A DNA stretch of 64,000 nt from a virus. How positions within the stretch are numbered: the stretch's first letter is position 1; every line of letters begins with the position of its first letter. Location: UHGV virus genome UHGV-1342921; one strand, given 5' to 3'. Made by a program: the position numbers and the translations under genes. Positions 1,533-44,766 of this stretch are shown piece by piece. The notes under the pieces were generated by a model, which saw only the letters and a list, made by a program, of their open reading frames with translations, was not told the origin of the DNA and did no database searches.

Positions 1533-1533
1533 A

Positions 1534-1610: not shown

Positions 1611-1668
1611 AAGAAGGGGACAGGTCTTGTCTATGGAACGTTGCCATAGACAAAGTGTGTCTCCCTTG

Positions 1669-3608: not shown

Positions 3609-3909
3609 ACAACAACGCTTCCGCTAAATCGTCTTTTGTGTATCCTTTACCCTTCTTGCCGGACTTCAGCCTGTCTGCGATAGCCTCGACCTCGTCAATG
3701 AGCATACCCAAGTCTTGTGAGTATCCATCTGCGATAAGCTCTTGCTCGTGATATGCGTCTTCAAGAGCGTCGTAGTCCCTTCCGGGCGTACCGCCGAACT
3801 CTTCCATAGCATACCACATCTCATCAGGTGTGATGCCAACCTCATCAAGCCATTTAAGCAAATCATATTGATCATGCAACCAAGTGCCGTCATTAAGACA
3901 AATCCTCAT
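3583..3909 (-). CDS. Hypothetical protein (about 108 aa; start trimmed to the internal Met MRICLNDGTW...)
   Basis: GAGAGGAGC Shine-Dalgarno 7 nt upstream of the internal ATG. The longer ORF-track start has no RBS. Confidence 0.45.
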   Translation of the reverse strand: MRICLNDGTWLHDQYDLLKWLDEVGITPDEMWYAMEEFGGTPGRDYDALEDAYHEQELIADGYSQDLGMLIDEVEAIADRLKSGKKGKGYTKDDLAEALLYAVRCVRR

Positions 3910-4026
3910 AGAAGCGCTCCTCTCAACTTTCTTGTCTATATTATACAACAAACGGATACCTGGGCGCAAGTATGAATTTTTGCACAAAAAAAGAGGACCC
4001 AGCTATAAGCCAGATCCTCTTCTAAA

Positions 4027-23429: not shown

Positions 23430-23450
23430 TGGAGATCGTTTAGTTCACTA

Positions 23451-23480
23451 TTGACAACAGGGGGTTATAAAGGCTATAAT
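23451..23480 (+). promoter_or_regulatory. Sigma-70-like promoter TTGACA-18 bp-TATAAT
   Basis: TTGACA at 23451-23456 and TATAAT at 23475-23480. Confidence 0.6.
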
Positions 23481-23511
23481 GTCTTTATAATCCCCTTTTT
23501 GCGTATAGGGA

Positions 23512-23922
23512 GTGATACGGTTGAACGCAATGAAAAATCCTGACCAAGAATGGCTAGACAAGATTCATGAGAAAGGCGTGTTGTTGTTTGGGTCCTCCTA
23601 CAACAGGCTTGAGACAGAGAAACGAATACGGATGTGGAAGAAGGACAACCCGGAGATAACAGTCAGAGGGGTGTACTCGACCATCAGATGGTGGTACGAC
23701 ATATGCGGTCACACGACAGAAGGCTCAAACAACGGGTTCGGCATCGTCCCACATGTGTACGAGGATGCCAAGAACTACTTCAAGGAGCAAAGGGACCTGC
23801 ATGTCAAATATTACCAGCCTGACGCTATAAACAAGGTGCTCGCCCCCGAGGTTGACGTAATACAGATAAAGGCACCCGAGACAAAAGTGAAAAACTACTT
23901 AAAAGGATTTGAGCTATCATAG
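23512..23922 (+). CDS. Hypothetical protein (136 aa; start uncertain among GTG 23512, TTG 23521 and ATG 23530)
   Basis: ORF with GGGAG just upstream. Confidence 0.4.
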   Translation: MIRLNAMKNPDQEWLDKIHEKGVLLFGSSYNRLETEKRIRMWKKDNPEITVRGVYSTIRWWYDICGHTTEGSNNGFGIVPHVYEDAKNYFKEQRDLHVKYYQPDAINKVLAPEVDVIQIKAPETKVKNYLKGFELS

Positions 23923-23933
23923 GAGGTTGTGTT

Positions 23934-25154
23934 TTGGCGAGCAAATACGAAGACTCGACATCCGCGATTCAGGTGATAGGTGGAATCATAAACCAGCCCG
24001 AGTTGCTGGAAGACACTGGAAAGTATTTTTTTAGGGCCGAGGACTTCACATCAGAGCTGCATAGGGTTGTGTTCTCGGCAATCGGCACAATCTATGCGAA
24101 CGGCGGAACCAAAGTGACGGCCAAGGCAGTCGACGACGTTCTATCGACGTACCCCGAGGCATATGCGACCTACAAGGCGTCAAGGGGCAACGAGTGGTTT
24201 GCCAAGGTACAGGCTGAATGCGACCTCGACAACTTCGACTTGTATTACAATAGGCTCAAGAAGATGACGTTGCTTCGAGAGTACGACAACGCTGGTATAG
24301 ACGTGTCGTTCATTCTTGATATGGACGAGCTTGATGCAAAGAAACGGCAAAAACAATGGCAAGAGTTCGACAATATGAGCGCGAACGACATTGCGGACGA
24401 TATTGAAAACAAAATGTCAAAGATCAAGTCTACTTTTGTGGACAACCTAGACAAGAACACAAAACTTGTAAGTGATGGTTTGAGCACCTTGTTCAGTAAG
24501 TTGAGGAACGAGCCAGAGTTCGGCGTTCCGTTGTACGGACCTTTCATAAACACGGTGACGATGGGTGCAAGATTGACGAAGTTTTATTTGAGAAGCGCAC
24601 CTACTGGTGTTGGTAAAACTCGCATGATGATAGCCGACGTTTGCAACATCGCGTGCGACGAGATTTACGATTCCAGGATCGGTGCATGGAAAAAGAACGG
24701 TGAAAGCTTGCCGTGTCTGTACATCTCTACAGAGCTTGAAATGTCAGAGATTCAGACAATGTGCCTTGCGTTCTTGAGCAATGTCGAGGAGAACAAGATT
24801 CTCGGTGCGGAGAAGATGACTTTCGATGAGATCGACAGGGTAGAGCATGCGCTTGAGGTTCTTGAGAGAGCACCTTTGTTCATCGACATTATCTGTGACT
24901 TCTCACTCAAGGATATTGAGAACAGCATCAGGAAGAACCATAGGGAAAACAAGGTGATGTATGTCTTCTATGACTATATCATGACAACCATGAAGATTCT
25001 TGAAGAGATCACTGCGAAGTCGAAGGGTGTAAACCTCCGCGAGGACAGCATTCTGTTCATGATTAGCGTGAAGCTCAAGGATTTGGCTAATGAGCTGGGG
25101 ATATTCGTTCTTACCTCAACACAACTCAATGGTAGACTTTCTACTGCCAATTAA
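23934..25154 (+). CDS. dnaB: DnaB-like replicative helicase, exon 1 (N-terminal domain plus Walker A/B RecA-like core up to the helicase QLN motif)
   Basis: RSAPTGVGKTRMMIADV (Walker A), YVFYDYIMTTM (Walker B region), LKDLANELGIFVLTSTQLNGRLSTAN (H3/H4 region). The frame terminates at a TAA immediately after the predicted 5' splice site. Confidence 0.75.
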   Translation: MASKYEDSTSAIQVIGGIINQPELLEDTGKYFFRAEDFTSELHRVVFSAIGTIYANGGTKVTAKAVDDVLSTYPEAYATYKASRGNEWFAKVQAECDLDNFDLYYNRLKKMTLLREYDNAGIDVSFILDMDELDAKKRQKQWQEFDNMSANDIADDIENKMSKIKSTFVDNLDKNTKLVSDGLSTLFSKLRNEPEFGVPLYGPFINTVTMGARLTKFYLRSAPTGVGKTRMMIADVCNIACDEIYDSRIGAWKKNGESLPCLYISTELEMSEIQTMCLAFLSNVEENKILGAEKMTFDEIDRVEHALEVLERAPLFIDIICDFSLKDIENSIRKNHRENKVMYVFYDYIMTTMKILEEITAKSKGVNLREDSILFMISVKLKDLANELGIFVLTSTQLNGRLSTAN

Positions 25155-26228
25155 ATTCCTTATCCTTTTACCAGAGGGGTAAACGCTTCGTATAAAGTGT
25201 TTGCTAACGGGGAAGACTAAACGATAGTTATAAAAACTTCTTTTGAGAAGAACTATCGCATGTTAATCCCGTGTGATACCGCTTCTTCTCTCTTCAAGAG
25301 AGGAGATTGATTATTTTGCCTGGCAACTCTAAAATTTGTGGAATCTACAGAATCAAGAATGAATTAAACGGAAAGGTTTATATTGGGCAAAGTAAGAGAA
25401 TCTTTGGCCGATGGAACGAACATCTCCGTTCTTCTTTTCCTGAAAAATGGGCTGTAGAGACAAAGCGTGACCAAGATTTACCGCTTCATCGTTCAATAAG
25501 GAAATATGGAATAGAGAATTTTTCTTTTACTATCCTGGAAATATGTTCTCCAGAAGAGCTTAATGACAAGGAAAAAGAGTATATCAAGAAATATGAGTCA
25601 GACTTGCGTGACAAAGGATACAACCTTGCTAGTGGCGGACAAGACTCTTTTGCGTTAGCTGGTGAGCGCCATAGCCAAGCAAAACTCACACAACATCAAG
25701 TTGATGAAATAATTGATATGCTGTCTCAAGGTATTCCATTGGAAGAAATTAGCCAGAAATTTAAAGTCTCAAAGCCAGCAGTTTGCAATATAAACACAGG
25801 AAAGAATTGGCATTCTGATGATCGTCAGTATCCAATTCATAAATATGAGCCTCTTAAAGGAGAGCGAGCAGGTCAAGCTAGGCTGACAGACGAACAAGTA
25901 ATGGCTATTCGGAACGATTTTGCAGACGGAGATTTAACTCTTCAGCAAATAGCAGATAAACATGGAATCCAGTACGGAAATACAGTTTCTATCTGCTACG
26001 GATATTCTTGGACTCACCTGCCGGTGTTTAAAAAAGGGCAAAATAAAAAGCGGGGCCATGTATCGACTATCTCCGAGGCTGAAATGCGGGAGAGTAGGGC
26101 TACTAGTGGTAAGTAGCGAGGTTTTAGGAAACGAATCCTCTGAAAACCGAAATAGGATTCTATAGTATTTTACTATAGTAAGATATAGTCAGTGCTCTAG
26201 GGAAACCTAGAGACCCACGAGCTGGAAG
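25155..26228 (+). mobile_element. Group I intron (about 1.07 kb) interrupting the dnaB-like helicase gene; encodes a GIY-YIG homing endonuclease
   Basis: Exon 1 ends in U with an in-frame stop at the intron start. Conserved group I S element AAGATATAGTCAGTGC at 26180-26195, followed by a P9-type GAAA hairpin (CTCTAGGgaaaCCTAGAG). Omega-G at 26228. The joined exons restore the DnaB H4 motif (QLNGRLSTAN-TDPIPDQNLLRGSKSI versus DnaB QLNRSLEQRADKRPVNSDLRESGSI). Confidence 0.7.
25307..26116 (+). CDS. GIY-YIG homing endonuclease (I-TevI-like) encoded within the dnaB intron, with C-terminal NUMOD/HTH-like DNA-binding repeats
   Basis: ICGIYRIKNELNGKVYIGQS (GIY...YIG), R-x(3)-H, KYGIENF, N at the catalytic position. 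Repeated AKLTQHQVDEI and ARLTDEQVMAI helix-turn-helix-like modules. The start is ambiguous (TTG at 25307 or 25316). Confidence 0.75.
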   Translation: MIILPGNSKICGIYRIKNELNGKVYIGQSKRIFGRWNEHLRSSFPEKWAVETKRDQDLPLHRSIRKYGIENFSFTILEICSPEELNDKEKEYIKKYESDLRDKGYNLASGGQDSFALAGERHSQAKLTQHQVDEIIDMLSQGIPLEEISQKFKVSKPAVCNINTGKNWHSDDRQYPIHKYEPLKGERAGQARLTDEQVMAIRNDFADGDLTLQQIADKHGIQYGNTVSICYGYSWTHLPVFKKGQNKKRGHVSTISEAEMRESRATSGK

Positions 26229-26597
26229 ACAGACCCAATACCTGACCAAAACTTACTTCGAGGGAGTAAGAGTATTTGTGACAAGGTCGACTACGCCAGT
26301 ATTGCCCTCGACGTCACAGAAGACGACTTGGAGAGGATCCGCCCTATCTTGAGTAGCATTCCCGTTGTGCCGAACGTAAAGATGAGCGTATACAAGAACA
26401 GGCGCGGTGCATACAACAGGATCTTCCTTTGGATGTATGCGAACAAGGGAACCTGCCGCTACGAGACGATGTTCGCCACTGATTTCAACTACCACCCCAT
26501 AGACCTTAAAGAGACCGAACTGATTGTAAAGAGGGACGACACAGAGGAAGAGAAAGAGCCTGTTATCCTAGACGGTGGTGATGACCTTGAGTTTTGA
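26229..26597 (+). CDS. dnaB: DnaB-like helicase, exon 2 (C-terminal H4 motif through the end)
   Basis: TDPIPDQNLLRGSKSICDKVDYASIALDV aligns with DnaB ...DLRESGSIEQDADVV. KNRRGAYNRIFLWMYANKGTCRYETMF aligns with the DnaB C-terminus KQRNGPTGTVKLAF...TRF. Confidence 0.65.
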   Translation, partial: TDPIPDQNLLRGSKSICDKVDYASIALDVTEDDLERIRPILSSIPVVPNVKMSVYKNRRGAYNRIFLWMYANKGTCRYETMFATDFNYHPIDLKETELIVKRDDTEEEKEPVILDGGDDLEF

Positions 26598-32262: not shown

Positions 32263-34749
32263 CCTTCGATTAGACTATCATTGTCATAGTTCATTGTCGA
32301 ATATCCGCTTACTTTGACTCGATCAATACTCTCGAAGATCTAACCAAACGAGCTGTCGAATTAGGTCTCCCTGGCATTGCGATTACTGAACACGAATGCC
32401 TTGGTAACTCTATTGATATAGAAATCCTTCAAGAAAAAATTCGACAAGAGCATCCTAGTTTTAAGATTGTTCATGGCAACGAAATCTACCTTACAGACGA
32501 TCGGTCTATGGGGCAAAAATACTATCATTTTATTTTGTTAGCTCTTGACGAGGTTGGTTTCCACATGATGTCCGAGCTGTCGTCTACCGCCTGGCTGAAC
32601 GGGTATTTCGACCGAGGACTCATGCGCGTGCCGACTTTGAAGTCAGACGTCGAGGACGTAATCAAGCGTTACGGGCAAGGCCACATCTACGCAAGCCAGG
32701 CTTGTCTTGGGTCGGAGTTAAGCACTTATGTCCTGAAAATGCACGACTGCCAGGAGAAGGGTGACAAAGAAGGTCGCAAGCACTGGCACGACGAGATCGT
32801 CAAGTTTGTGAGCTGGTGCACGAACACGTTCGGCAAGGACAACTTCTGCTTTGAGATTCAGCCGTCAAGGTCGCACGACCAGTTGATTCTCAATAACATC
32901 ATGCCGTCCATCGCAAAGGCGTTCAAACTGCCGATGTGCATTACGTGCGACGCCCATTACTTGACAAAGGAAGACGCCCCGATTCATAAGGCGTTCCTGA
33001 ACTCCAAGCAAGGCGATCGAGAGGTTGACGAGTTCTATTCTGCGACGTGGTTGCAGTCGGAGGATGAGATTCTTGAGCACCTTGAAGGCACTCCCGTCGA
33101 TTATGAGCAATGTTGCAAAGACAGCATGGCAATCTTTGATAGGGTGCAGGACTTCACCTTGAGGAAGCCACAAGAGGTGCCTGAAGCTCCCGTGCCGTTC
33201 AAGCCCAAGCGACATGTGGAATGTTCTAAATATCCCATCTTGTCGAAGCTGTATGAGTCTGACAGCGAGCAGGAAAGGTTCTGGGTAAACGAGTGCATCG
33301 GCCAACTGAAGAAACGAGGGCTGTATAACGACCAATACGTTTCAAGACTTGAAGAAGAAGCCGACGTTATGGATTATATCGGGCAGAAGCTCAACACCTG
33401 CATCTTCGCCTACTCACTGTTCATGCGCCACTATATCGACCTGATTTGGAACTGTGGCTCAACGGTTGGTGTCGGTCGTGGATCAGCTGGTGGCGGTTTA
33501 TCTCACTGGTTGCTTGGCATCACCGGCACAGACCCTATTATTAGTGGTAGCCATTTTTGGAGGTTTCTTAATAAAGAACGTGTCGAACTGCCTGATATTG
33601 ATATTGACGTGTGCCCATCCAAGCGAGAAGCTGTCTTCGAAGAGACACGCAAGGAGACTGGAGAGCTTGGTTGCGTGCACGTGTGCACCTATGGAACATT
33701 AACAACAAAGGCAACTATCAAGCTGGCTGGGCGAGGATACCGTTCCAAAGAGTACCCAAACGGCATCCCTCTTGAAGAGACTGAATACATCTCCTCTCTT
33801 GTGCCCTCCGAACGAGGATTTTTATGGACACTTAAGGACGTCATAAACGGCAATCCTGACAAGGGACGAAAGGCATCTGTGCAATTCAATGCAGAGATTG
33901 AGAAGTACCCTGGTCTCAAAGAGATTCTGTTCAAGATTGAAGGTCTTGTAGTTCAAGCAGGCATCCACGCAAGCGGTGTGATCTACCCGCCCAAGGAGGA
34001 CTATTACCGTTATGGACCTTTCATGAAGGCCAAGAACGGCACCATCATCACGCAGTATTCCCTGCACATGGCAGAAGCGGCAGGTGCCACCAAGATTGAC
34101 TGGCTCGTCACAGAAGTCCAAGAGGTCATCACCCAGTGCATCGAGGAGCTTCAGCAGGCTGGGTACATCGAGAAAGGCTTAACCCTGCGCGAGGCTTATG
34201 ACAAGTACGTCAGCCCTGATGCGATTCCTCTTGACGACCCTGACACTTGGGACGCTGTAGACCGAGCAGATGTCCTCAAGCTATTCCAGCTCGACTCTAT
34301 GATCGGTCGTCAAGGTGCAAGGCTCATCAAGCCTCGTTCAATCGAGGAGCTGACGGCTGTCAACGCATTGATTCGACTGATGGCAGACGACGGTGAGGAG
34401 CGCCCAATGGACAGGTACGTCCGTCACAAGGCGCATCCGGAAGAGTGGGAGAAGGAACTTGACGAGTACGGCCTGTCAGACGAGGAGAAGACTGTCCTAC
34501 ACAAGCATTTCGACTCAAGCTACGGCGTCTGCTACGCACAAGAGCAGATGATGATGGCATTGATGGACCCAGGCATTTGTGGGTTTGACTTCAAAGCCAG
34601 TAACCAGGCAAGAAAAATCGTGGCGAAGAAAAAGTTCGATCAGATTGAAAGCTTGCATAAGCAGATTGTTGAGAGTGCCGTTTCACCTGCTATGGCAAAG
34701 TATGTGTGGGACGTTGTCGTTAAACCTTCGTTAGGATACAGCTTCAACT
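32249..34749 (+). CDS. dnaE: DNA polymerase III alpha subunit (DnaE-type), exon 1. Translation needs a +1 frameshift at CTT TGA C (32312-32318); the PHP domain and polymerase core follow
   Basis: ATG at 32249 with a GAGGGAGGGAAGG RBS gives MTTTNLRLDYHCHSSLSNIRLL then TGA. The +1 frame continues DSINTLEDLTKRAVELGLPGIAITEHE...KIVHGNEIYL (PHP motifs), then ...GIHASGVIY..., KIDWLVTEV, ...SLGYSF. The ORF-track start at 32508 is an internal Met. Confidence 0.7.
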
Positions 34750-35036
34750 AGAGGAGCCTTTTACCGGTGACGGTAATAGCAAAGCTACTTAACTGCGGGA
34801 ACTTCTTTAGAGCCTATAACTACCAACCGTGCGTGGCGACATACATGGGGCAGAGGGTAACGCCCGAGATATGGTAACAAGGTTATAGGATTAGAAAATC
34901 CGCAACGCCACCTCTGGCTGTTAGACAGAGGAACGCCCAGAGACTACCACGTAGCCTTCTCTACAAGAGAAGATGGTATAGTCCAGACCGCAACACATAA
35001 GTGGCTGGGGAGACCCAGTGCGGTATTGCTCAAACG
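34750..35036 (+). mobile_element. ORF-less group I intron (about 290 nt) in dnaE; the boundaries are approximate
   Basis: The Pol III alpha alignment breaks between ...GYSFN and (F)HGYSYSIIGYQCAWLATHYP (canonical [27 protein letters not shown]). In-frame stops lie on both sides. The intervening sequence has a P-like AACTGCGGGAAC, a Q-like AAATCCGCAACG and an S-like AGATGGTATAGTCC element. Omega-G at 35036. Confidence 0.55.
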
Positions 35037-36346
35037 TTCACGGATATAGCTACTCAATCATCGGCTACCAGTGCGCATGGCTTGCAACACACTACCCGAA
35101 GGTGTTTTGGAACACTGCATGCCTTCGAGTGGACTCGGGCGTTGAAGACGATGCAACGACAAGTTATGACAAGATTTCAAAGGCGGTCGGCAACATTCTC
35201 AACGCAGGCATCAAAGTGTTGCCGATTGACATCAACAAGTCGGGGTACATGTTTGAGCCAGACGAGAAGACACAGTCGATTCTTTGCGGTCTTAAAGCGT
35301 TGATCGGCATCAATGGCGACACTGTTCAGCAAATCATCGAAAACAGGCCTTACAGTTCGTTCGATGACTTCCGAGAGAAGGTGCCGCTGAACAAGACGGC
35401 GATGATTTCACTCATCAAGGCTCACGCATTTGACTGCTTTGACGTCAGATACAACGTCATGGTTCAGTACATCACCGAGCAGAGCGAGCCCAAGTCCAAG
35501 CTGACGATGGCTAACCTGCAAGGTCTTATTGACAGGAGCATGATTCCGGCAGACTATCAGTTGCAGATCAGGACGTTCGTTTTCAACAAGTCCTTGCGTG
35601 CCAACTGCAAATTCAAGGAATGGTACACCCTTGAGGGCAGATACTATCGTTTCTATGAGAAGTTCTTCGACATAGACGAGCTTGAGAGCGTCGGCGGCAA
35701 GTTCTGCATCTCACAAAAGAAGTGGCAGAAGATGTATACAAAGATGATGGAGCCTGTGAAGAAGTACATCACCGACAACCAAAAGGCCCTGCTTGAACAG
35801 TTCAACCTCACGTTGTTCAACGAGCAATGGAACAAGTACGCATCGGGCACTCGCGGTTCGTGGGACATGAGTTCCCTGGGCTTCTATTCCGCCAAGCACG
35901 AGCTGGACGGCATAGAGTACGACAAGTACGGCCTGTCGAAGTTCTCAAGCCTGCCCGAGGAGCCTGTAGAAGCCGAGTCGCGTGGCAAGTTCAAGATTTA
36001 CAATCTCACGAGGATCTGCGGCACGGTTGTGGCGAAAGACGACACTCGTTCGACCTTCACTCTCCTCACCCCGGATTCAGGCTCCGTCGACGTCAAGCTT
36101 CCCAGGGAGATTTACGCCCACTACAACAGGAAGATCGTGCTGGAGAACTCTGGCTCGAAGATTTCCGAGGACGGGTGGTTCACAAGGGGCACGCTTCTCA
36201 TGGCATGCGGTTATCGGCAGGGAAACATGTTCAGGCTAAAGAGGTACAAGAACACGTCAAGCTTGCTGTTGTATAACATGGCGATAACCAAGAGTGGTAG
36301 GATAATCTGCACCGGAAGCCGCCTCGGTGACGAAGACGAGGTATAA
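35037..36346 (+). CDS. dnaE: DNA polymerase III alpha subunit, exon 2 (C-terminal HhH/OB region)
   Basis: HGYSYSIIGYQCAWLATHYPKVFW...AGIKVLPIDINKSGYMFEP...LCGLKALIGINGDTVQQIIENRPYSSFDDFREKV...LIKAHAFDCF matches the DnaE C-terminal region. Confidence 0.7.
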
Positions 36347-36356
36347 GTTACATTGT

Positions 36357-36409
36357 TTGACTACAGCTCCGCTTTTGTGTTATAATAATATTTCACAAGA
36401 GCGGAGCTG
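36357..36409 (+). promoter_or_regulatory. Promoter TTGACT-18 bp-TATAAT whose -10 element sits in the loop of a 17-bp inverted repeat (terminator/attenuator-like) between dnaE and the guanylate kinase gene
   Basis: ACAGCTCCGCTTTTGTG ... CACAAGAGCGGAGCTGT (16 of 17 complementary) encloses TTATAATAATATTT. TTGACT at 36357-36362. Confidence 0.5.
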
Positions 36410-36428
36410 TTTGTATGTAAGGAGAAAA

Positions 36429-37022
36429 ATGAGACAGAAGATTCTGGCAATCGTCGGTCCTTCATGTGCCGGTAAAGACACAATCAAAGACAGGCTTGCG
36501 CTTATCGACAGCCATACGTTCCACGTTCCACAGCGCGTGACTAGCAGGCCTCGCAGGCCAGGGGAGAGGGACTCGGCGTATAGGTTCGTCACAAAGCGAA
36601 CGTTCAAGACCGAGATAAAGTATGGCTGCCTTGCCGAGTACGGGTGGTTCCGTGGATGGGGGTACGGCACCAGGATTGACGACCTCACCAACGATGACGA
36701 AAAGATCAACGTGCTCACGATGGACTTGAACTCCCTAAAGATGCTCAAGAGGAACCTCGGTGTGGCAGACATCCGCTGTGTCTATCTTGACGCGCCCTTG
36801 TCTGTCCGTCTTAAAAGGTACAAGGACAGGGACGGTGGAATGTCATCGTTTGAGATGTACAGGCGTGCCGTCTCCGACAGCCTTATGTACCGCAACGCCA
36901 TCGACGAGATTCTAAAGCTCGGCATTCCGCACGCCTACATCCCCAACGACAAAGGGTTGTACGGCAGGACAGACGAGGTGCTGTCTTTTTGCAAAGATTG
37001 GTTGAACGGTCAAAGGTTTTAA
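36429..37022 (+). CDS. Guanylate kinase-like (d)NMP kinase
   Basis: P-loop GPSCAGKDT. GMP-binding signature TSRPRRPGE (compare TTRxPRxGE). TAAGGAG RBS upstream of the ATG at 36429. Confidence 0.7.
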   Translation: MRQKILAIVGPSCAGKDTIKDRLALIDSHTFHVPQRVTSRPRRPGERDSAYRFVTKRTFKTEIKYGCLAEYGWFRGWGYGTRIDDLTNDDEKINVLTMDLNSLKMLKRNLGVADIRCVYLDAPLSVRLKRYKDRDGGMSSFEMYRRAVSDSLMYRNAIDEILKLGIPHAYIPNDKGLYGRTDEVLSFCKDWLNGQRF

Positions 37023-37087
37023 CTTGACATTATGACTCCATCTAGTATATAATACAAAAACCAGACACAAGATATTGGAGGTAGCCT

Positions 37088-38389
37088 ATGAAAGTTAAAA
37101 AAAGGAACGGCAATCTCGAAAAGTACGACTTAAAGAAGATCAGACACGCGATTGAGCGTGCGTTTGAGGACATCTACGGTCAAGAGACGTACACAAATGA
37201 CATGCAGGTCAACATCAGCGGATTAGCTTCAGCGACAGAAGTCCAAATTTGCAAGGTTGGGGTCGCAGATGTAGAGGATATCCAAGATGTGGAGGATATC
37301 CAAGACGCTGTTGAAGACGTGTTGATGCTCAATGGATATTATGAGGTGGCGAAGGAGTATATTCGATACAGGTATCTCCACGAGCTACGTCGAAATGAGC
37401 GAGAGCAAGAGAAGTTTTATGACAGCATCGGTGAAAAGCTCAAAGCTACCAACGTTCAGAACCAGAATGCGAATGTCGATGAGAAGTCCTTCGGTGGTAG
37501 AATGGGTGAGGCCTGTTCTGAACTAACCCGTGATTACGCTTTAAAAAACTGTTTATCCGAAATGGCAAGGAACAACCATCTTAATAACGAGATTTACGAA
37601 CACGACCTTGATCATTACCCCACAGGAGACCACAACTGCCTGTCTATTCCATTTGACAAGCTTTTGGCTAATGGCTTCAACACAAGACAAACCGATGTAA
37701 GACCTGCAAATTCCGTCAATACGGCGTTTCAATTGGTTGCCGTCATTTTTCAGCTACAGAGTCTTATGCAGTTTGGTGGGGTAAGTGCGACGCATCTAGA
37801 TTGGACAATGGTTCCATATGTACGAAAGTCCTTCTTAAAGCATTTTAAAGACGGAATGCTTTGGTGGTGTAAGAGCTGTGACAACAGCGATAAATATGCT
37901 AAATTCCTCCGTGAAGTAGAAGACGGCTTGTGGCCCGACACACTCTTTATTGAAGACGAGAGATACAAAGTCCATGATATGGCTTATCAATACGCGGTCG
38001 AAATGACCAAGAAAGAGACTTATCAAGCGGTAGAAGGCATGTACCACAACCTAAATACACTACAAAGTCGAAGCGGGAACCAGCTTCCCTTTACATCAAC
38101 CAATTTCGGCACATGCACGCTTCCTGAAGGTCGTCTTGTCATAAAAGCAATGCTAGAAACTTCGATTCGCGGTCTTGGCAAGCTTCATAAAACCAGTATT
38201 TTTCCCTGCACTATTTTCCAGTGTATGAAGGGTGTCAATCGAGCTCCTGGAGATCCAAATTACGACCTGTTCCAGCTTGCTTTAAAATCAACCTCTCAAA
38301 GGCTTTACCCCAACTATGCTAACGTAGATTGGTCTGGCAACGCTGGCTACGATAGAAACGATCCAAAGACCTACTTCAGCACCATGGGT
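37088..38389 (+). CDS. nrdD: Anaerobic ribonucleoside-triphosphate reductase NrdD, exon 1 (ATP-cone plus catalytic barrel up to the ...YFSTMG active-site loop)
   Basis: N-terminal ATP-cone VKKRNGNLEKYDLKKIRHAIERA. Exon 1 ends ...TMG and exon 2 begins CRTANG..., which reconstitutes the conserved NrdD MGCR motif (E. coli SPMGCRSFLG). Confidence 0.8.
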
Positions 38390-39483
38390 AAGCGTAAACT
38401 ATAGCTCATGTAAAACCTCCTTAACCTCGCCAGAGGGTGTGGGTTCTTAAACTCGCTAACGGTTAGGGCTCTTATGAGTTGAGACCGTGCTAAACACTCT
38501 AAAAATGTTGTTCTTTTCTGACTCTCTTGAACAAAAAAGGGGTACATACAAGAGAAAGCAGTTAGAAAGGACCAACATGTATATCTACAAAGTAACAAAC
38601 AGTTTGAACGGTAAATTTTATATTGGGCAAACGGTTCGAACTCCAGAATCCAGATGGGAACGTCATAAAAATGATGCCCTAGGAGATCGTCACCTTGATA
38701 CACATTTTGCGAGAGCTATTAGAAAATATGGCCCTGAAAATTTTACCATTGAAACAATTGACACTGCATCCTCTCAAGAAGAACTGACGAAGAAAGAACA
38801 TGATTGGATAGTTAAGACTCGGGCGGTAGAGAAAGGTTATAACGAAACTTCTGCTATCGAAAAATGTGGTGGTAACACCTACGAGTCAAAAACCAAAGAA
38901 GAACTTGCTTGTATTGGTGAGAAAATTAGAAAAACTAAACTTGGTGGCAACAATCCTCACTCAACAAAGGTAAAATGTAAAGACACTACCACGGGCGAAG
39001 AATTTCATTTTAATTCTCAAGTAGAAATGCAAAAGTTCTTTGGCGCTCCTAATCACCTGTTTATTTCACGACGTTGTCTTGGACAAGTAAAAAGTTTATA
39101 CAAAAAACGCTGGCTAATCTCTTACGAAGAAGGAGAGATTATTGCGAAGAACCATATTGGAAAAGGTTCAGAAAGAGCAACCGGCGTTTACGTAAAAGAT
39201 TTACAAACAGGGGAAAGTAAGTCTTTTCCCAGCTATTCCGATGCAGAGCGATATTTTGGACAGAAGGAAAGAGCTTTTAGTAGCAAAGCCTACAAAAGAG
39301 GCAATTCTTTTGTTTATAAAAGTAGATATGAAATTACAAAAATTTTAGAGTGAAAGTGTATCGACTATCCCTGATGAATGTAAGGGAGTAGGGCTAGAGA
39401 TAGGCACTAGCTCGAAACGGGAGGCTACCGTCTTATGAAGGTAGAAGATATAGTCAGTGCAGATGGTGACATCTGATAACACG
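38390..39483 (+). mobile_element. Group I intron (about 1.09 kb) in nrdD encoding a GIY-YIG homing endonuclease
   Basis: Exon 1 ends in U (ggU at 38389). S element AAGATATAGTCAGTGC at 39448-39463, about 20 nt before the omega-G at 39483. Exon frames are continuous across the junction. Core sequence shared with the dnaB intron. Confidence 0.8.
38577..39353 (+). CDS. GIY-YIG homing endonuclease (I-TevI/I-TevII-like) within the nrdD intron
   Basis: MYIYKVTNSLNGKFYIGQT (GIY...YIG), R-x(3)-H, IRKYGPENF, conserved E/N. GAAAGGA RBS upstream of the ATG at 38577. Confidence 0.8.
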   Translation: MYIYKVTNSLNGKFYIGQTVRTPESRWERHKNDALGDRHLDTHFARAIRKYGPENFTIETIDTASSQEELTKKEHDWIVKTRAVEKGYNETSAIEKCGGNTYESKTKEELACIGEKIRKTKLGGNNPHSTKVKCKDTTTGEEFHFNSQVEMQKFFGAPNHLFISRRCLGQVKSLYKKRWLISYEEGEIIAKNHIGKGSERATGVYVKDLQTGESKSFPSYSDAERYFGQKERAFSSKAYKRGNSFVYKSRYEITKILE

Positions 39484-40422
39484 TGTAGGACCGCCAATGG
39501 ATACGACATCAATGGCATGGCCCAGACAAAAGACGGACGAGGGAACATCTGTCCTGTCACTATAATTATGCCGACTCTTGCTATGGAAGCCGACCGAGAT
39601 GTAGAGAAGTTCATGGAACTTCTTGACAAAAAGATTCACGAAGCCAAAGACATGCTTTTGGAACGTTTTGAGTACATCTGCTCACAGTCTCCTGAATCGG
39701 GCAAGTTCATGTACGAGAACGGCACTATGGAGGGATATATTCCGGAAGAGGGTATCCGTAGCGCTCTCAAGCATGGTACGTTGGCGCTTGGCCAGTTAGG
39801 ACTAGCGGAAACGCTTCAACTGCTTATCGGAACAGACCAGACAACAGACAAAGGAATGGAATTGGCCAAGCGTATCGAGTCTTTGTTCCGCAAGCGCTGT
39901 GATGAGTTTAAGCACAAGTACAAGCTTAATTTTGGAGTTTATTACACACCAGCAGAGAATCTATGCTTTAAAGCTCTTAAAAAGTTTAGAGCTAAATATG
40001 GCGTTATTCCTAACGTGTCAGACAAAGATTTCTTTACTAACTCTATTCATTGTCCTGTATGGAGCGATTTAACAGTTATGGAAAAGATTGACATTGAGTC
40101 TCAACTCACAGGATATTCCAACGCGGGCTGCATCGTTTACGCCGAATTGCCATCAACCACTAAGAACAACCTTGAAGCACTTGAGACTATTGTAAATTAT
40201 GCAATGGATAAAGATATCCCTTATTTTGCCATCAACGTGCCGAACGACACTTGCCTTGACTGCGGATATTGCGACGAGTTCAACGACCATTGCCCAATGT
40301 GCGGAAGCACTCATATTCAACAGCTTCGTAGAGTGACAGGCTACTTAACTGGGAACTATACCACCGCGTTCAATCTCGGCAAGCAAGACGAGGTTCACCA
40401 TAGAGCCAAGAATGCAAGATAA
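39484..40422 (+). CDS. nrdD: NrdD exon 2 (C-terminal half with the zinc ribbon and glycyl-radical motif)
   Basis: ...YYTPAENLCFKA, SDKDFFTNSIHCPV, CLDCGYC...CPMCGS (zinc ribbon), and RRVTGYLTGN...FNLGKQDEVHHR (glycyl radical RVxGY plus C-terminal tail), colinear with E. coli NrdD. Confidence 0.8.
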   Translation, partial: CRTANGYDINGMAQTKDGRGNICPVTIIMPTLAMEADRDVEKFMELLDKKIHEAKDMLLERFEYICSQSPESGKFMYENGTMEGYIPEEGIRSALKHGTLALGQLGLAETLQLLIGTDQTTDKGMELAKRIESLFRKRCDEFKHKYKLNFGVYYTPAENLCFKALKKFRAKYGVIPNVSDKDFFTNSIHCPVWSDLTVMEKIDIESQLTGYSNAGCIVYAELPSTTKNNLEALETIVNYAMDKDIPYFAINVPNDTCLDCGYCDEFNDHCPMCGSTHIQQLRRVTGYLTGNYTTAFNLGKQDEVHHRAKNAR

Positions 40423-40459
40423 TAAACCTTGATTCTGCTTATAGAATTAAATTTTACCA

Positions 40460-40489
40460 TTGACGGCAGGTCCATATATGTGCTATAAT
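40460..40489 (+). promoter_or_regulatory. Sigma-70-like promoter TTGACG-18 bp-TATAAT
   Basis: TTGACG at 40460-40465 and TATAAT at 40484-40489. Confidence 0.55.
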
Positions 40490-40517
40490 ATACTTATCAG
40501 TTGAAAGGAGCACATAC

Positions 40518-40871
40518 ATGGACTCTGTCTTTCTTGTTTGGTATGACAACGGCGAAGATTACGAAGACAATTACACTTCCGTGGAGAAGGTGTTCCACAC
40601 CAGAAAGAACGCAGAGAGGTTCCTTGAGGAAGACCTAGACCTTGAGCGAGTTGACAGCAAGTTCGGTACAACTTGGATCCCCAAGAAAGCCCCCTGTCCC
40701 TTCGGTCTCACCGACGGAGAGAACTGCGCCCGTCAGTTCTGCCCGATGTTCTCCCCTTCCGAGAACGACGACGTTCTGACTGGCGTCCGAGAGTGCAAGC
40801 ACGAGGATATCTTCTGGGAGAACGAGTATCTTCGCCATTTCTACACAATAGAGCAGAGGGAAGTATATTAA
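40518..40871 (+). CDS. Hypothetical protein (117 aa)
   Basis: AAAGGAG RBS upstream. Sits between nrdD and nrdG. Confidence 0.45.
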   Translation: MDSVFLVWYDNGEDYEDNYTSVEKVFHTRKNAERFLEEDLDLERVDSKFGTTWIPKKAPCPFGLTDGENCARQFCPMFSPSENDDVLTGVRECKHEDIFWENEYLRHFYTIEQREVY

Positions 40872-40884
40872 GGAGGTAAGAAGC

Positions 40885-41409
40885 TTGAGGTATGCCGACA
40901 TCCACAAAATGAACATCAGCGACGGTCCTGGCATAGGCGTGTCGTTGTACGTTCAGGGGTGCGCGTTGCATTGCCCAGGTTGCTTTAACGAGGGAACCTG
41001 GGACTTCGACGGTGGGAAAGAGTACACGAACGACACGATGGACACAATCCTCGATCTGCTCAAGCCCGAGTGGATGACAAGGCTGTCCATCCTTGGCGGG
41101 GAACCACTATGTCCAGCGAACTACAGGGAGCTTATCAAGCTCACGTATCTGGCGCATGAGGAGAACAAAGACAAGCCAGACTTTAAGGTGTGGATGTGGA
41201 CCGGCAGGACTTACGAGAACCTTATGGCCGAGATAAACTCCGAGTCAGACTGCAAGCACCAGCACCCTTTGGAGCTCGTCCTGAAGGGCGTCGACTACCT
41301 GGTGGACGGCCCGTTCATCCAGGACAAGAAAGACCTGACGCTCAAGTGGCGCGGAAGCTCGAACCAAAGGATCATCGCCTTGAACGGCAACGAAGAGATT
41401 GGACAATAG
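40885..41409 (+). CDS. nrdG: Anaerobic RNR activating protein NrdG (radical SAM), TTG start
   Basis: CALHCPGC is the CxxxCxxC radical-SAM cluster motif near the N-terminus. Size is about 174 aa. AGGAGGT RBS 7 nt upstream of the TTG. Adjacent to nrdD. Confidence 0.8.
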   Translation: MRYADIHKMNISDGPGIGVSLYVQGCALHCPGCFNEGTWDFDGGKEYTNDTMDTILDLLKPEWMTRLSILGGEPLCPANYRELIKLTYLAHEENKDKPDFKVWMWTGRTYENLMAEINSESDCKHQHPLELVLKGVDYLVDGPFIQDKKDLTLKWRGSSNQRIIALNGNEEIGQ

Positions 41410-41815
41410 CAAGATGGAAATGAACACAGGCCTTACACAGTATGAATTTGCAAAGCGGCGATTTGAGAGCGGTGCCGTCGATGAGTTCACCGAGACCAAG
41501 ACGATTGCCGAGTTGACGAACATCAGCGCGTGGTTCTCTACGGAGAAGTACTTCCAATATTTCATGCTGTTGTGCCGAGAAGCCTACGACTTCACCGTCA
41601 TCAACATCAAGGGCACCAACTACCACAAGGCAATGACCGAGGTTCAGGAAGTGCTTGAGTCCCGTGGCAAGATCGTGTTCATTGAATATTGTCATGACAG
41701 CGGGGACTACGAGATTTGGATCAAGACCAACGAGCAGATGAAAATGGTTACCGGGTCCGACTATGTTATGTTTAAGTTGTTCCCATGCAACGACTTCGTG
41801 ATAGAGGTGGATTAA
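41399..41815 (+). CDS. Hypothetical protein (the start may be the internal Met at 41414)
   Basis: ORF overlapping the nrdG stop. Confidence 0.4.
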   Translation: MDNSKMEMNTGLTQYEFAKRRFESGAVDEFTETKTIAELTNISAWFSTEKYFQYFMLLCREAYDFTVINIKGTNYHKAMTEVQEVLESRGKIVFIEYCHDSGDYEIWIKTNEQMKMVTGSDYVMFKLFPCNDFVIEVD

Positions 41816-41816
41816 A

Positions 41817-42074
41817 GTGAAGTTATATGTCAACATCAACGGACTGACAAAGATCACGGCTTTTGACGACAACAACAACATCGTCTTTGAGAAGAACTGC
41901 ACCTACCCTGAAATTCTCAACATCCTAGACGCCGTGTCTCAAAAGTACCAGGCAGAGTCTTTCGACAAGATCTACATCACCGGGGCAAGTAAGCTCACCG
42001 AGCGACTCATGAACTCAATGACCCCAGTGTTTACCAAGGCAATGTACTGCATTGAAGGAGGAAGGAAGCGCTAA
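41817..42074 (+). CDS. Hypothetical small protein (GTG start)
   Basis: GGTGGA RBS. Tightly packed gene string. Confidence 0.4.
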   Translation: MKLYVNINGLTKITAFDDNNNIVFEKNCTYPEILNILDAVSQKYQAESFDKIYITGASKLTERLMNSMTPVFTKAMYCIEGGRKR

Positions 42075-42355
42075 TGATTCAGTATCTTCTTAAAACCACC
42101 GAGGAAATCATGGTCGACACCGAGGTCGACGTCGATTCCCTTCAGGACTTTCTGAAGCGCGACGCAGAGGAGCAGAACTACGTCATCAAGACGTTCTCTT
42201 ATGAGAAGAAGGTTCGCAAGATGAAGGGCGAGGAAGACGAGGAGTATTACAAGTGCAAGGTGGTCAAGCTGTTCAACAGTGAGAAGTACCCCGACCTACC
42301 TCTTCGCAAGGTTGTTTACACGGGCTTCAACGACGGCAGGAGCGATGAGATTTGA
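42074..42355 (+). CDS. Hypothetical small acidic protein
   Basis: Start overlaps the preceding stop (ATGA). Confidence 0.4.
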   Translation: MIQYLLKTTEEIMVDTEVDVDSLQDFLKRDAEEQNYVIKTFSYEKKVRKMKGEEDEEYYKCKVVKLFNSEKYPDLPLRKVVYTGFNDGRSDEI

Positions 42356-42621
42356 TAGACATCACCAAAGAGAAGATGACTCAAGAGGAAATAAGCTCCA
42401 ACCTTCGACTTGACGGATTCTCTTGGTGCTACTTTTCAACGGCGAAGGGTCGGTTCGGCTTGTATCTTGTGCCGACCCTTCGCCAGGACGGCTTTCCCGT
42501 CAATGTGACAGTCATGGACAATGACGGTAGGGTCGTCATTTACGAGCATCATTTTGACGTGCCGAAAAAGGAATGGAGCAATTTCTTCAACAATATCATT
42601 GACCAGTTGAACGACATTTAG
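42352..42621 (+). CDS. Hypothetical small protein
   Basis: Start overlaps the preceding stop. Confidence 0.4.
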   Translation: MIDITKEKMTQEEISSNLRLDGFSWCYFSTAKGRFGLYLVPTLRQDGFPVNVTVMDNDGRVVIYEHHFDVPKKEWSNFFNNIIDQLNDI

Positions 42622-42628
42622 GAGGAAC

Positions 42629-43084
42629 ATGGAAAAGGACATGCTATCGCACAGTGAGTTTGAGACCATTCAGATCAAGTACTTCCCCGGTGCGCCCCAT
42701 CTAGAGAAGATTGACAAGGGCGATTGGATCGACCTATACACCAACGAGGATGCAGTGCTGTTTGAGGGCGAGTCAAAGATTGTCCCTCTAGGTGTAGCCA
42801 TGAAGCTTCCCGATGGCTATGAAGCCATTGTAGCCCCTCGTAGCAGTACTTTCAAGAGGTGGGGCGTTATTATGACGAACAGCCTTGGGATTATCGACAA
42901 CAAGTATTGCGGAAACGATGACCAGTGGGGCATGCCGGTCTACGCGACTCGCAACGTAACCATCCCCAAGGGAACCCGGCTTTGCCAGTTCCGCATCCAG
43001 AAGAACCAGCCTGACATTCTGTTCAAGGAAGTTGACAGCCTTAATGATTCAAACCGTGGTGGATGGGGCAGTTCGGGCGAGTAG
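42629..43084 (+). CDS. dut: dUTP pyrophosphatase (dUTPase)
   Basis: Motifs AIVAPRSS (motif 3), GIIDNKYCG (motif 4 GxIDxDYxG) and C-terminal RGGWGSSG (motif 5 RGxxGFGSTG). Confidence 0.85.
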   Translation: MEKDMLSHSEFETIQIKYFPGAPHLEKIDKGDWIDLYTNEDAVLFEGESKIVPLGVAMKLPDGYEAIVAPRSSTFKRWGVIMTNSLGIIDNKYCGNDDQWGMPVYATRNVTIPKGTRLCQFRIQKNQPDILFKEVDSLNDSNRGGWGSSGE

Positions 43085-43096
43085 GAGAGGTTCCCA

Positions 43097-43375
43097 ATGT
43101 CAGTATTCGTTCTTGAATTTAAATTCCGCGAGTGGAACGAGGATGAAGGAAAATGGTTGGTCAGGAATCCGGACGAGTACCTGTTCTATGCTGATGCGGA
43201 AGCAGCTTTAAAAACGGCCTCTGAAGTTGCGAGCTCCAAATATTCATACCAAAAGCGTGGTTGTCCGTCAAGCATCTCCTTGTACTCTTTCCAAGATTGC
43301 GACGTCGTTACTGCCAACGACATTCGCTTGCCCGTTGCACAATGGACGGACCTTGATCATTCACGAAAATATTAG
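43097..43375 (+). CDS. Hypothetical small protein
   Basis: GGAGAGG RBS upstream. Confidence 0.4.
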   Translation: MSVFVLEFKFREWNEDEGKWLVRNPDEYLFYADAEAALKTASEVASSKYSYQKRGCPSSISLYSFQDCDVVTANDIRLPVAQWTDLDHSRKY

Positions 43376-43399
43376 TGGAAGGAGCGGTGAAAACAGCCA

Positions 43400-44275
43400 A
43401 TGCCAAGAACCATAGATCCTCAACCAGCCATCGAAGCTCTTGAGGAAATCGTAATCAAACCAGCTTCGAAAGTTGTCACACCGACTCTTGGATGTATCAT
43501 CGAAGACAAGAGCGAGTCAAACAAGTCTGACTGGATCTATCTAAAACAGCTTATCAAATGTGCCAACAAGTACGGAGCAGAGATTGAGACGCTTTCTTGT
43601 TTTGGTTTACAAGACGCCTATAAGAATATTTCGACACTGAAAAACGACTCTAGGATTGACGGCATAATCATCTTGTCTTCCTTTAAGAAGGGTGACGACC
43701 AGTTCCTCAAGAACTACATCCCGATGCCTCTTGACATTGACTGCGCGTCTGCCGTCTCCCTTGGACACATGCTTTACGACCGAAGCGAGACGTTCTATAG
43801 GGGTGCACCTTGTACAGCTGGAGCTATATACAAGCTCTTGACCTACAATGACGTTGACGTAGCGGGCAAGCGAGTCGGTGTCGTAGGCAGGTCCCCAAGG
43901 GTCGGTAGGCCTGTCGCACAGCTTATGTCAATAGCAAACGCGACAGTTACGCTCTATCACTCAAAGTCAGACCTGTCTTCTCTTGCACAAGAGGACGTTG
44001 TGATTTCTGCAATCGGCAAGCCAAAGTTTTTAAAGGCAAACCTGTTCAGAGAAGGGCAGGTTGTCGTGGATGCGGGGATCAACGTCGATGAGAACGGCAA
44101 GCTCTGCGGTGACGTCGACTACGACGAGGTCTGCAAGGTTCTCGGTGACTCCGGTGCAATCACACCTGTGCCGAACGGGGTTGGTCCTTTGACGAACGTC
44201 GTCTTGTTCTCCAAGCTGTTCGCAAACAAGTACACGCTCCGAGGCTACACGTTCTCTCGCGGGGTCAACTCGTGA
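43400..44275 (+). CDS. folD: Bifunctional methylenetetrahydrofolate dehydrogenase/cyclohydrolase (FolD)
   Basis: GKRVGVVGRSPRVGRPVAQLM...NATVTLYHSKS (FolD Rossmann signature GRSxIVGxPxaxLL...atVTxcHsxT) and C-terminal PVPNGVGPLTNVVL (GGVGPMT). Confidence 0.8.
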   Translation: MPRTIDPQPAIEALEEIVIKPASKVVTPTLGCIIEDKSESNKSDWIYLKQLIKCANKYGAEIETLSCFGLQDAYKNISTLKNDSRIDGIIILSSFKKGDDQFLKNYIPMPLDIDCASAVSLGHMLYDRSETFYRGAPCTAGAIYKLLTYNDVDVAGKRVGVVGRSPRVGRPVAQLMSIANATVTLYHSKSDLSSLAQEDVVISAIGKPKFLKANLFREGQVVVDAGINVDENGKLCGDVDYDEVCKVLGDSGAITPVPNGVGPLTNVVLFSKLFANKYTLRGYTFSRGVNS

Positions 44276-44766
44276 TGGATGGCGTAGAAATAGTCTTGTC
44301 GCTAGACCAGGCTTTAAGAACCACCGGATATGCCGTCTTCCAAGGAGACGACCTTGTGGCGAACGGCACATTCTCTATCCCCTCTGACAAGCCTATGGAC
44401 GAAAGACTTCACCTGTTCATGAAAGAGGTACAAAAGCTCAAACGGCAATATGAGCCGGATGTGATTTGTTTTGAGGATATACAAGACCAGAACAACACGA
44501 AGACGTTTAAAATTCTGGCGTATGTTCAAGCGTCGATGCTTATATTCTGCGCTTTGACAGACTCCAAATACTGCATTTTAGCGCCATCACATTGGAGGAA
44601 AGTCCTAGGAGGCGGGTTCGGCAGAACAAGAGCTGAACAAAAAGAACATTCCATTGCTATCGTAAAAGAACGTTTCGGTATCGACGTTGATTCAGACACG
44701 GCGGACGCGATTTGTATTGGATTGGCTTATCTTGAAGAGAGTAAATTATGCTCGCGGTCACAATAG
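44272..44766 (+). CDS. RuvC-like Holliday junction resolvase
   Basis: IVLSLDQALRTTGYAVF (RuvC motif I with catalytic Asp). ...CFEDIQ...; SDTADAICIG (C-terminal DxxDA motif). Confidence 0.7.
   Translation: MMDGVEIVLSLDQALRTTGYAVFQGDDLVANGTFSIPSDKPMDERLHLFMKEVQKLKRQYEPDVICFEDIQDQNNTKTFKILAYVQASMLIFCALTDSKYCILAPSHWRKVLGGGFGRTRAEQKEHSIAIVKERFGIDVDSDTADAICIGLAYLEESKLCSRSQ

Follow-up and report, generated by a model that had tools for sequence, protein, structure and literature searches.

A putative mobile group I intron with a GIY-YIG endonuclease gene, inserted between the codons for Gly434 and Cys435 in the nrdD gene of a phage

In the window analysed here, a stretch of 64,000 nucleotides of a virus genome, a 1094-nt insert (38390-39483) separates two nrdD reading frames and is, judged from its sequence, very probably a T4-type (subgroup IA) group I intron, self-splicing and mobile, located between the codons of Gly434 and Cys435. 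Its boundaries are defined to the base, its removal restores the reading frame, its fold is backed by covariation, it is present in one and absent from another of two near-identical genomes, and it carries an intact endonuclease gene. From these features we infer that the intron splices and that the endonuclease is active, as well as where it would cut. The intron as such is almost certainly functional.

The insert and the nrdD gene that hosts it

Exon 1 ends with ...TAC TTC AGC ACC ATG GGT, the last base being T (U in RNA), and exon 2 starts with TGT AGG ACC GCC AAT GGA, whereas the insert between them ends with ...GATAACACG, the last base of which is G39483. A preliminary description, made from the letters of the window alone, had placed the boundaries at exactly these bases, with exon 1 ending on U and exon 2 beginning with CRTANG. 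Both exons have whole numbers of codons, and joining them yields a 746-aa NrdD that reads ...YFSTMG/CRTANG... (the slash marks the insertion point), the insert lying within the MGCR motif. Without splicing, exon 1 would be followed by AAG CGT AAA CTA TAG, so that translation stops after four codons (KRKL, then stop).

Profile and structure comparisons support the continuity of the protein. Positions 2-262 of the Pfam NRDD profile fall in exon 1 and positions 264-560 in exon 2, and the joined NrdD aligns without a gap across the join to the solved structures 8p23, which has IATMGCRT at this place, and 1h78, which is T4 NrdD. The frames are thus continuous and the junction recreates MGCR, as had been described. 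When the protein is aligned pairwise to T4 NrdD, its residues M433-G434-C435-R436 correspond to M288-G289-C290-R291, and Gly720 corresponds to G580. We take C290 and G580 of the T4 enzyme to be the thiyl-radical cysteine and the glycyl-radical glycine, respectively, and assign these roles to Cys435 and Gly720. The gene belongs to the class III RNRs, as it possesses NRDD, ATP-cone and Gly_radical domains (Pfam) and has an nrdG-like neighbour. The DnaE-type polymerase mentioned in the preliminary description is encoded just upstream, with PHP, DNA_pol3_alpha and HHH_6 domains.

In public assemblies, gene callers split the locus into products of 438, 258 and 319 aa. A total of 10 public contigs carry the identical exon 1 product, and at the two of these places that are displayed, the order is again exon 1, GIY-YIG gene, exon 2, so the interruption is not an artefact of assembly. 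A megablast of positions 37000-40500 against GenBank phages returned nothing but a 32-nt block of T4, which indicates that the phage is absent from the GenBank phage collection searched.

Searching IMG/VR with the spliced NrdD protein gave 80 loci, all of which have an uninterrupted nrdD. The best of these, on the 140.5-kb IMG/VR contig 3300045988_157119 (L007), is collinear with positions 33088-44419 of the window at ~94% nucleotide identity and lacks exactly the bases 38390-39483: the alignment consists of two blocks, 33088-38388 and 39484-44419, which abut in L007. An intron-minus nrdD in related phages, for which the preliminary description had proposed to search, therefore exists. Across the join this allele reads ...AGC ACA ATG GGC/TGT AGG ACC..., and the differences nearest to the join concern positions -1 (GGT in the window, GGC in L007) and -7 (C in the window, A in L007). 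These two positions belong to P1, and each time it is the intron-bearing allele whose base pairs with the guide. Of the differences around the join, only these two changes within P1 are suggestive. The Gly codon at the site is GGA in 29, GGT in 18, GGC in 15 and GGG in 6 of 68 intron-less relatives. A co-conversion tract was sought through the density of mismatches against L007, which was at background next to the site (7 in the first 100 nt upstream and 4 downstream).

Fold of the intron and its endonuclease gene

At the gathering threshold, an Rfam search of the whole window reported tRNAs only and missed all three group I introns of the window. In E-value mode, RF00028 matched only the 3' half of the nrdD intron, with 23.3 bits (E 0.002) against a gathering score of 50 bits, so the curated model does not vouch for this intron. 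In control searches with the same model, the T4 nrdD intron scored 105 bits and a compact ORF-less intron at the same site (L128) scored 69.6 bits, above the threshold, compared to only 17.9 bits for a complete 330-nt ORF-less relative with the same sub-architecture as ours. The last score shows that the curated model is insensitive to this branch of introns. The low score of the nrdD intron is likely due to the 777-nt ORF in P6, which splits the core, and that of the ORF-less relative is likely due to two extra hairpins between P3 and P4.

As the Rfam match was below threshold and covered half of the intron only, we derived the structure directly from homologues (Table 1) and then tested it on 19 distinct same-site nrdD introns, aligned after trimming of their ORFs. 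In the intron itself, every helix (P1, P10, P3-P9, P7.1 and P7.2) consists of standard pairs throughout. Over the 19 introns, standard pairs occupy 90.1% of the cells, whereas controls with the 3' partner shifted by 1-3 columns reach 35-42%. Compensatory changes occur at 46 of the 75 pairs, and none of 500 shuffles reached the observed values. The U·G pair at the 5' splice site is invariant (19/19 homologues), and the terminal column is G in all 19.

The strands of P3 and P7 cross as expected for the pseudoknot of the conserved core. The junction J8/7 together with the 3' strand of P7 forms the 'S' element, AAGAUAUAGUC, whereas the segment 3' of P9, AUAACACG, ends in the omega-G at 39483. The insert possesses the guide sequence with P1 and P10, the omega-G and the conserved core that define group I introns. 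This full P1-P10 fold, the covariation and the precise absence of the insert from L007 support the original assignment as a group I intron in nrdD. The presence of P7.1 and P7.2 further assigns it to subgroup IA, to which the T4 introns belong. By eye, without scoring, the two hairpins between P3 and P4 were also recognised in the dnaB intron of the window and in Vibrio phage F100 (first nrdD intron).

Compared to the T4 nrdD intron, the intron is 74% identical over 111 nt, and the segment GACUAUCCCUGAUGAAUGUAAGGGAGUAGGG, which spans P7, P7.1 and the junction after them, matches it at 32/32 nt. A recent transfer from T4 was considered on the ground of this identity and rejected. The block is 94-100% identical in many introns at the same site in unrelated phages, which indicates that it is a constrained element of the core.

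Table 1. Features of the nrdD locus, in positions of the window
Feature	Position	Strand	Evidence or remark
Sigma-70-type promoter-like site upstream of nrdD	37024-37053	+	TTGACA, 18 nt, TATAAT; 12/12 consensus positions; consensus match only
nrdD exon 1, 434 codons; ATP-cone and N-terminal half of NRDD fold	37088-38389	+	Pfam ATP-cone E 5e-18
Group I intron, subgroup IA (T4-type; P7.1 and P7.2), 1094 nt, omega-G last	38390-39483	+	absence in L007; covariation; T4 block
P1	38383-38389 with 38404-38410	+	7 bp; U38389·G38404 wobble at 5' splice site
Internal guide sequence CUAUA/GCUCAUG	38399-38410	+	P1 97%, P10 82.5% paired in 19 homologues
P10	38399-38403 with 39484-39488 (first exon 2 bases)	+	5 bp; guide bases adjoining P1
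P3 (CCUCCU / GGGAGG)	38416-38421 with 39419-39424	+	4/6 pairs compensatory; 97.4% of cells paired
Extra hairpin 1, P3-P4 interval	38425-38428 with 38433-38436 (38425-38436)	+	compensatory changes at 3/4 pairs
Extra hairpin 2, P3-P4 interval	38439-38444 with 38451-38456 (38439-38456)	+	compensatory in 3/5 scored main-run pairs
P4	38459-38463 with 38484-38488	+	97.8% paired
P5	38468-38471 with 38476-38479	+	88.9% paired; 3 compensatory pairs
P6	38495-38504 with 39343-39352	+	10 bp, 10/10 standard; 9/10 compensatory in homologues
Hairpin pairing the Shine-Dalgarno (AGAAAGGA) and AUG of the endonuclease ORF	38505-38578	+	MFE -25.1 kcal/mol, z-score -3.19
Homing endonuclease gene, 258 aa; N-terminal GIY-YIG domain	38577-39353	+	Pfam GIY-YIG PF01541
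3' catalytic core, P7 through P7 3' strand	39363-39455	+	all pairs standard
P7	39363-39368 with 39450-39455	+	94.7% of cells paired
P7.1	39369-39372 with 39383-39386 (39369-39386)	+	90.8% paired; compensatory changes
P7.2	39391-39397 with 39407-39413 (39391-39413)	+	85.6% paired; compensatory changes
P8	39425-39429 with 39440-39444 (39425-39444)	+	88.4% paired; compensatory changes
P9, GUGA loop	39460-39465 with 39470-39475	+	100% of cells paired; 5/6 pairs compensatory
nrdD exon 2, 312 codons and stop, starting at the Cys435 codon; C-terminal Cys-rich motif, Gly720	39484-40422	+	Pfam NRDD, Gly_radical
nrdG-like activating enzyme (context)	40885-41409	+	Pfam Fer4_12 E 6e-40; Radical_SAM

The endonuclease ORF sits in the loop of P6, with its stop codon (39351-39353) within the 3' strand of this helix. 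Its product matches the Pfam GIY-YIG family PF01541 with 34.7 bits (E 2e-8; cut-off 22.6 bits), whereas the C-terminal part has a weak match to NUMOD1 (17.5 bits vs a cut-off of 22.8). It also matches the catalytic domain of I-TevI (PDB 1mk0) at an E-value of 1.6e-5; in this alignment the segments IY, YIG/YVG, RW.RH, the Glu before WI, and GYN all correspond, including the characteristic Tyr, Arg, Glu and Asn residues. In addition, the protein matches PHROG homing-endonuclease families (E 6e-23), and a full-length homologue with 45% identity is encoded in a same-site intron of another phage (L094). A BLASTP comparison of the intron ORF with I-TevII found no similarity. The Pfam match and the intact 258-aa ORF bear out the reading of the insert as an intron with a GIY-YIG endonuclease gene; its label as I-TevI/II-like holds for the I-TevI catalytic domain and fails for I-TevII.

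A hairpin sequesters both the ribosome-binding site and the start codon of the endonuclease ORF, by which translation of the endonuclease is probably restricted, in analogy to the T4 intron endonucleases, for which a hairpin over the RBS has likewise been described (PMC2988022). A T4-like internal promoter, sought between the arms of this hairpin, was represented only by a weak and unconvincing 9/12 match at 38479-38506.

Proposed splicing and homing, and alternative explanations

The fold suggests how the intron would be removed. We propose that nrdD is transcribed as a single pre-mRNA, in which P1 would arise by pairing of the guide at 38399-38410 with the last bases of exon 1, so that U38389·G38404 marks the 5' splice site. 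This site would be attacked by a free guanosine occupying the pocket of P7, and the adjoining guide bases would form P10 with the first five bases of exon 2. The terminal G39483 would then enter the G site and the exons would be ligated as AUG GGU/UGU. In this scheme, the complete 746-aa NrdD, with both the catalytic Cys loop and the glycyl-radical domain, would be encoded by the spliced mRNA only. During a mixed infection, the endonuclease would be expected to cut an intron-less nrdD near the MG/C site, and repair off the intron-bearing allele would copy in the intron along with some flanking exon sequence. I-TevI cleaves ~23-25 nt upstream of the insertion site of its intron, and by analogy the cut of the present endonuclease would also be offset from the point of insertion.

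An intron that splices, but whose endonuclease is inactive or no longer recognises its site, would be inherited vertically without mobility. Loss of the endonuclease is common in the family, as 40 of the 70 complete same-site introns among the matches listed are ORF-less, and the C-terminal domain of our protein has only a weak Pfam match. Nevertheless, the ORF is uninterrupted and its GIY-YIG catalytic positions match those of I-TevI, its 45% identical full-length homologue occupies the same place in another phage, and the intron is present or absent between genomes that have diverged by only ~6%, so we consider an immobile intron unlikely. A pseudogenised nrdD with a decayed, non-splicing intron appears far less probable still: the Rfam score below threshold would agree with decay, yet no helix is broken, the exons are both intact and encode a protein with 97% identity to that of the intron-less allele, and the same exon 1 product is found on 10 public contigs.

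Alternatively, an endonuclease gene might have split nrdD without any splicing, the two halves being translated separately and assembling into the enzyme. Such a case is known from Aeromonas phage Aeh1, where NrdA is reported to be split by mobE and its halves to form the enzyme (PMC3653736). An in-frame GTG (39457) and ATG (39463) are found just upstream of exon 2, and a 319-aa product is called there. However, both start codons lie inside the covariation-supported P9, and no convincing Shine-Dalgarno sequence was seen before them. The ribozyme fold is complete, its P1 and P10 coincide precisely with the codon boundary, and a break at this point would separate Gly434 from the catalytic Cys435. 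We thus regard a split gene as very improbable, and a self-splicing, mobile intron as the preferred explanation.

The same-site intron family and comparison with known systems

To define the relatives of this intron, IMG/VR was scanned with the pattern ATGGGT-N10-22-GCYCATGTAAAAC, which combines the end of exon 1 with the guide sequence that follows. At least 119 contigs matched, at least 89 of them with NrdD-coding exons beside the match; among the 89 matches listed, NrdD is 22% to 83% identical to ours. Seventy introns among the matches listed have both ends in the locus, the ORF-less ones measuring 228-344 nt and the rest 735-1318 nt. An ATG-initiated ORF of at least 80 aa is present in 25 among the matches listed, and 16 of these ORFs form one HNH_3 / I-HmuI-like cluster. 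The second cluster among the matches listed is GIY-YIG with eight ORFs, and it also includes both ORFs of the window.

Introns at exactly the same point are also found in the GenBank Vibrio phages 184E37.1, F100 and 1.084.O (SYMG/CRS, TPMG/CRS), whose records annotate them as split genes or gene fragments, not as introns. The nearest relatives of the nrdD intron are same-site nrdD introns of other phages, with cores 77-84% identical to ours. Other relatives have nrdD introns which, in our numbering, lie near codons 226-232, 322 and 331, and an apparent intein is present at about codon 186 in one Vibrio phage. Among phage RNR genes, nrdD is the one most often split (PMC3653736). It is fragmented in 95 of 104 'Jug' phage genomes, and metatranscriptome reads confirm splicing for Jug phage examples including nrdD (PMC12880540).

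A second intron of the window, in dnaB, allows a comparison within one genome. The 16-mer AAGATATAGTCAGTGC, pointed out earlier as common to both introns, indeed has exactly two copies in the window, at 26180 and 39445, with 0.05 expected by chance. The dnaB intron is real and was placed at 25134-26219; its splicing would give ...TQLNG/SWKTDP..., and intron-less homologues (QLNAGWKTDP, QLNGGYQD) have the same length here. Both introns share a sub-architecture with two hairpins between P3 and P4 and an ORF in the loop of P6, and the two ORFs are 37% identical in the catalytic domain only. The cores of the two introns are 51% (5' segment) and 60% (3' segment) identical, the lowest values in the comparison. 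That they are each other's closest relatives was rejected in view of the 77-84% identity to same-site introns.

The preliminary description had suggested that one intron lineage colonised both genes and that the two cores be aligned. As an event within this genome, such a colonisation is not supported by the alignment, in which the dnaB intron is the least similar rather than the nearest relative. The 16-mer is a conserved element of the family, present in 15 of the 89 same-site nrdD introns among the matches listed, and not evidence of one intron spreading within the genome. The contig of the intron-less nrdD allele, 3300045988_157119, is also collinear with positions 22500-26266 of the window at 95.5%, through the dnaB intron, yet lacks the nrdD intron. 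The two introns vary independently among near-identical genomes. A pattern search of the window for further introns of the family type found none beyond those of nrdD and dnaB.

Altogether, these observations can be combined into a broader reading that we hold only tentatively and rate as rather doubtful, namely an ancient family at the MG/C site with turnover of its ORFs, a branch with extra hairpins, and an offshoot in T4. The MG/C site may host one ancient site-specific intron family across very distant phages, which may range from gut Firmicutes-type to marine Vibrio phages, with NrdD proteins 22-83% identical among the matches listed. In the loop of P6, HNH and GIY-YIG genes may have been exchanged or lost many times by its members, and the branch that includes the present intron may be marked by the two extra hairpins between P3 and P4. 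With these hairpins, the Rfam score would stay far under the threshold even for complete introns without an ORF, so that introns of this branch would routinely be recorded as 'split' nrdD genes. The sunY intron of T4 could be an offshoot of the family that moved ~110 codons upstream, as it has the same guide and a look-alike 5' exon that differs by one base (AUGAGU vs AUGGGU).

The nrdD intron is a member of a well-known kind, in a populous and poorly annotated site-specific family, and leaves the knowledge of group I introns unchanged. It provides a further clear case of mobile introns in the most conserved and critical codons of phage genes for nucleotide metabolism and replication. In this phage and its relatives, annotation should treat the two nrdD ORFs as a single spliced gene. 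Moreover, together with the relatives described here, which at this one site lack the intron or have it without an ORF, with an HNH gene or with a GIY-YIG gene, the intron forms part of a comparative set for endonuclease turnover.

Compared to the nrdD (sunY) intron of T4, which has been described as self-splicing and mobile (PMC2988022), our intron interrupts the same host gene and, with its P7.1 and P7.2, is of the same subgroup. The two are near-identical in their guide and joining sequence (GCUCAUGUAAAA), and the 32-nt P7/P7.1 block, J8/7 and the 3' strand of P7 are identical. Both introns also carry an endonuclease gene of the GIY-YIG family with a hairpin over its RBS. However, the 5' splice site of the T4 intron follows ...UAUGAGU at T4 codon 180, which corresponds to our codon ~320 and is ~110 codons upstream of MG/C. 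The T4 ORF is located 3' of P9, whereas ours is in the loop of P6, and the T4 intron lacks the two hairpins between P3 and P4. In addition, J4/5 and J5/4 are UAGG and UGAG here, compared to AAAC and CAAU in T4. The parallel to the T4 nrdD intron drawn in the preliminary description is therefore sound for the homologous RNA cores (32/32 nt) and does not extend to the insertion site or the placement of the ORF.

The td intron of T4 also belongs to subgroup IA and also has its ORF in the P6 region. The catalytic domain of its endonuclease, I-TevI, is recognisably similar to that of ours (1mk0, E 1.6e-5), but the host gene is a different one (thymidylate synthase) and the C-terminal DNA-binding regions of the two endonucleases are not detectably related. 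The same-site introns of Vibrio phages and of at least 89 IMG/VR contigs share with ours the insertion point, ...AUG GGU/UGY..., the guide GCYCAUGUAAAAC and a homologous core, and some of them carry a GIY-YIG gene orthologous to ours. By contrast, those of Vibrio phages have a compact T4-like core and HNH_3 / I-HmuI-like ORFs, and in the hosts of same-site introns the identity of NrdD to ours can fall to 22-32%. Among cultured phages, the closest relative is Thomasclavelia phage TR-TP1 / TR-TP2, with a NrdD 68% identical to ours. Its nrdD intron is inserted 4 nt upstream (ACC AU/G GGU UGU) and carries an HNH_3/NUMOD4 endonuclease gene instead of a GIY-YIG one, but it occupies the same gene and conserved motif with a subgroup-IA-like core and an ORF inside.

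The dnaB and dnaE introns

Besides that in nrdD, the window holds introns in the dnaB-like helicase gene and in dnaE. The dnaB exon junction, TQLNG|SWKTDP, was confirmed by two intron-less homologues (L210 and L211). This intron carries an extra hairpin (GAGGUUUUAGGAAACGAAUCCUC) 5' of the P3 3' strand; it is also present in some introns occupying the nrdD site in other phages (L094, L102 and L192), whereas the nrdD intron of the window lacks it. Sequence comparison indicates that the dnaB intron is rearranged further in the close relatives L208 and L209. At L208 2677-3645, unrelated sequence stands in place of the intron interior, whereas the L209 locus (3600-4200) contains two matches to the 3' portion of the intron (window 26045-26266).

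Exon 1 of dnaE ends with ...GGA TAC AGC TT and exon 2 starts with C TCA AAC GTT CAC, such that joining the exons yields GYSF|SNVHGYSYS. The motif GY(S/A)F-S..H is unbroken in all 14 alignments inspected, out of 51 junction-spanning matches to related IMG/VR loci. Because it has no P7.1/P7.2-type motifs, the dnaE intron probably belongs to a subgroup other than that of the introns bearing them.

Introns and other interruptions in dnaB, dnaE and nrdD; codon numbers are those of the spliced 746-aa NrdD of the window
Feature	Coordinates	Site	Description
Intron in dnaB-like helicase gene	25134-26219		1086 nt
GIY-YIG and helix-turn-helix ORF	25307-26116	P6 loop of dnaB intron	
Group I-like intron in dnaE, third in the window	34745-35028		284 nt, ORF-less
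nrdD intron of L134	L134 13012-13961	inside codon L322 (CU|U)	
nrdD intron of L142		near codon 331	
nrdD introns of L088 and L125		near codons 226-232	
nrdD intron of Thomasclavelia phage TR-TP2		4 nt upstream of the MG|C site of the window	
nrdD insertion of Vibrio phage PVo5		near codon 186	in-frame, ~294 aa

Rfam detection and public annotation

A whole-window Rfam search at the curated threshold recovered six tRNAs (500-1741, minus strand) and nothing else, so that each of the three group I introns went undetected. The match of RF00028 to the dnaE intron is sub-threshold, at 27.3 bits (E 4e-5). The nrdD exon-1 product is recorded as identical on 10 public contigs, two of which were inspected: ERZ5848896, a 142-kb ENA scaffold (H14_Tanzania_scaffold_4), and ERZ28615530. 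On both, gene callers divided nrdD into products of 438, 258 (GIY-YIG) and 319 aa.

Interruption points in nrdD and the T4 intron

The phage clade of the window has several further interruption points in nrdD. The in-frame insertion of PVo5 is likely an intein, and the L134 intron lies 7 nt from the position aligned with the T4 site. The T4 nrdD intron shares its guide and joining sequence (GCUCAUGUAAAA) with the MG|C-site family, and the 5' exons differ by one base (AUGAGU in T4 versus AUGGGU in the family). However, it is located ~110 codons upstream of the MG|C site, which in T4 itself (CCG ATG GGT TGC) is unoccupied. This may hint that the T4 nrdD intron once moved to a look-alike site.
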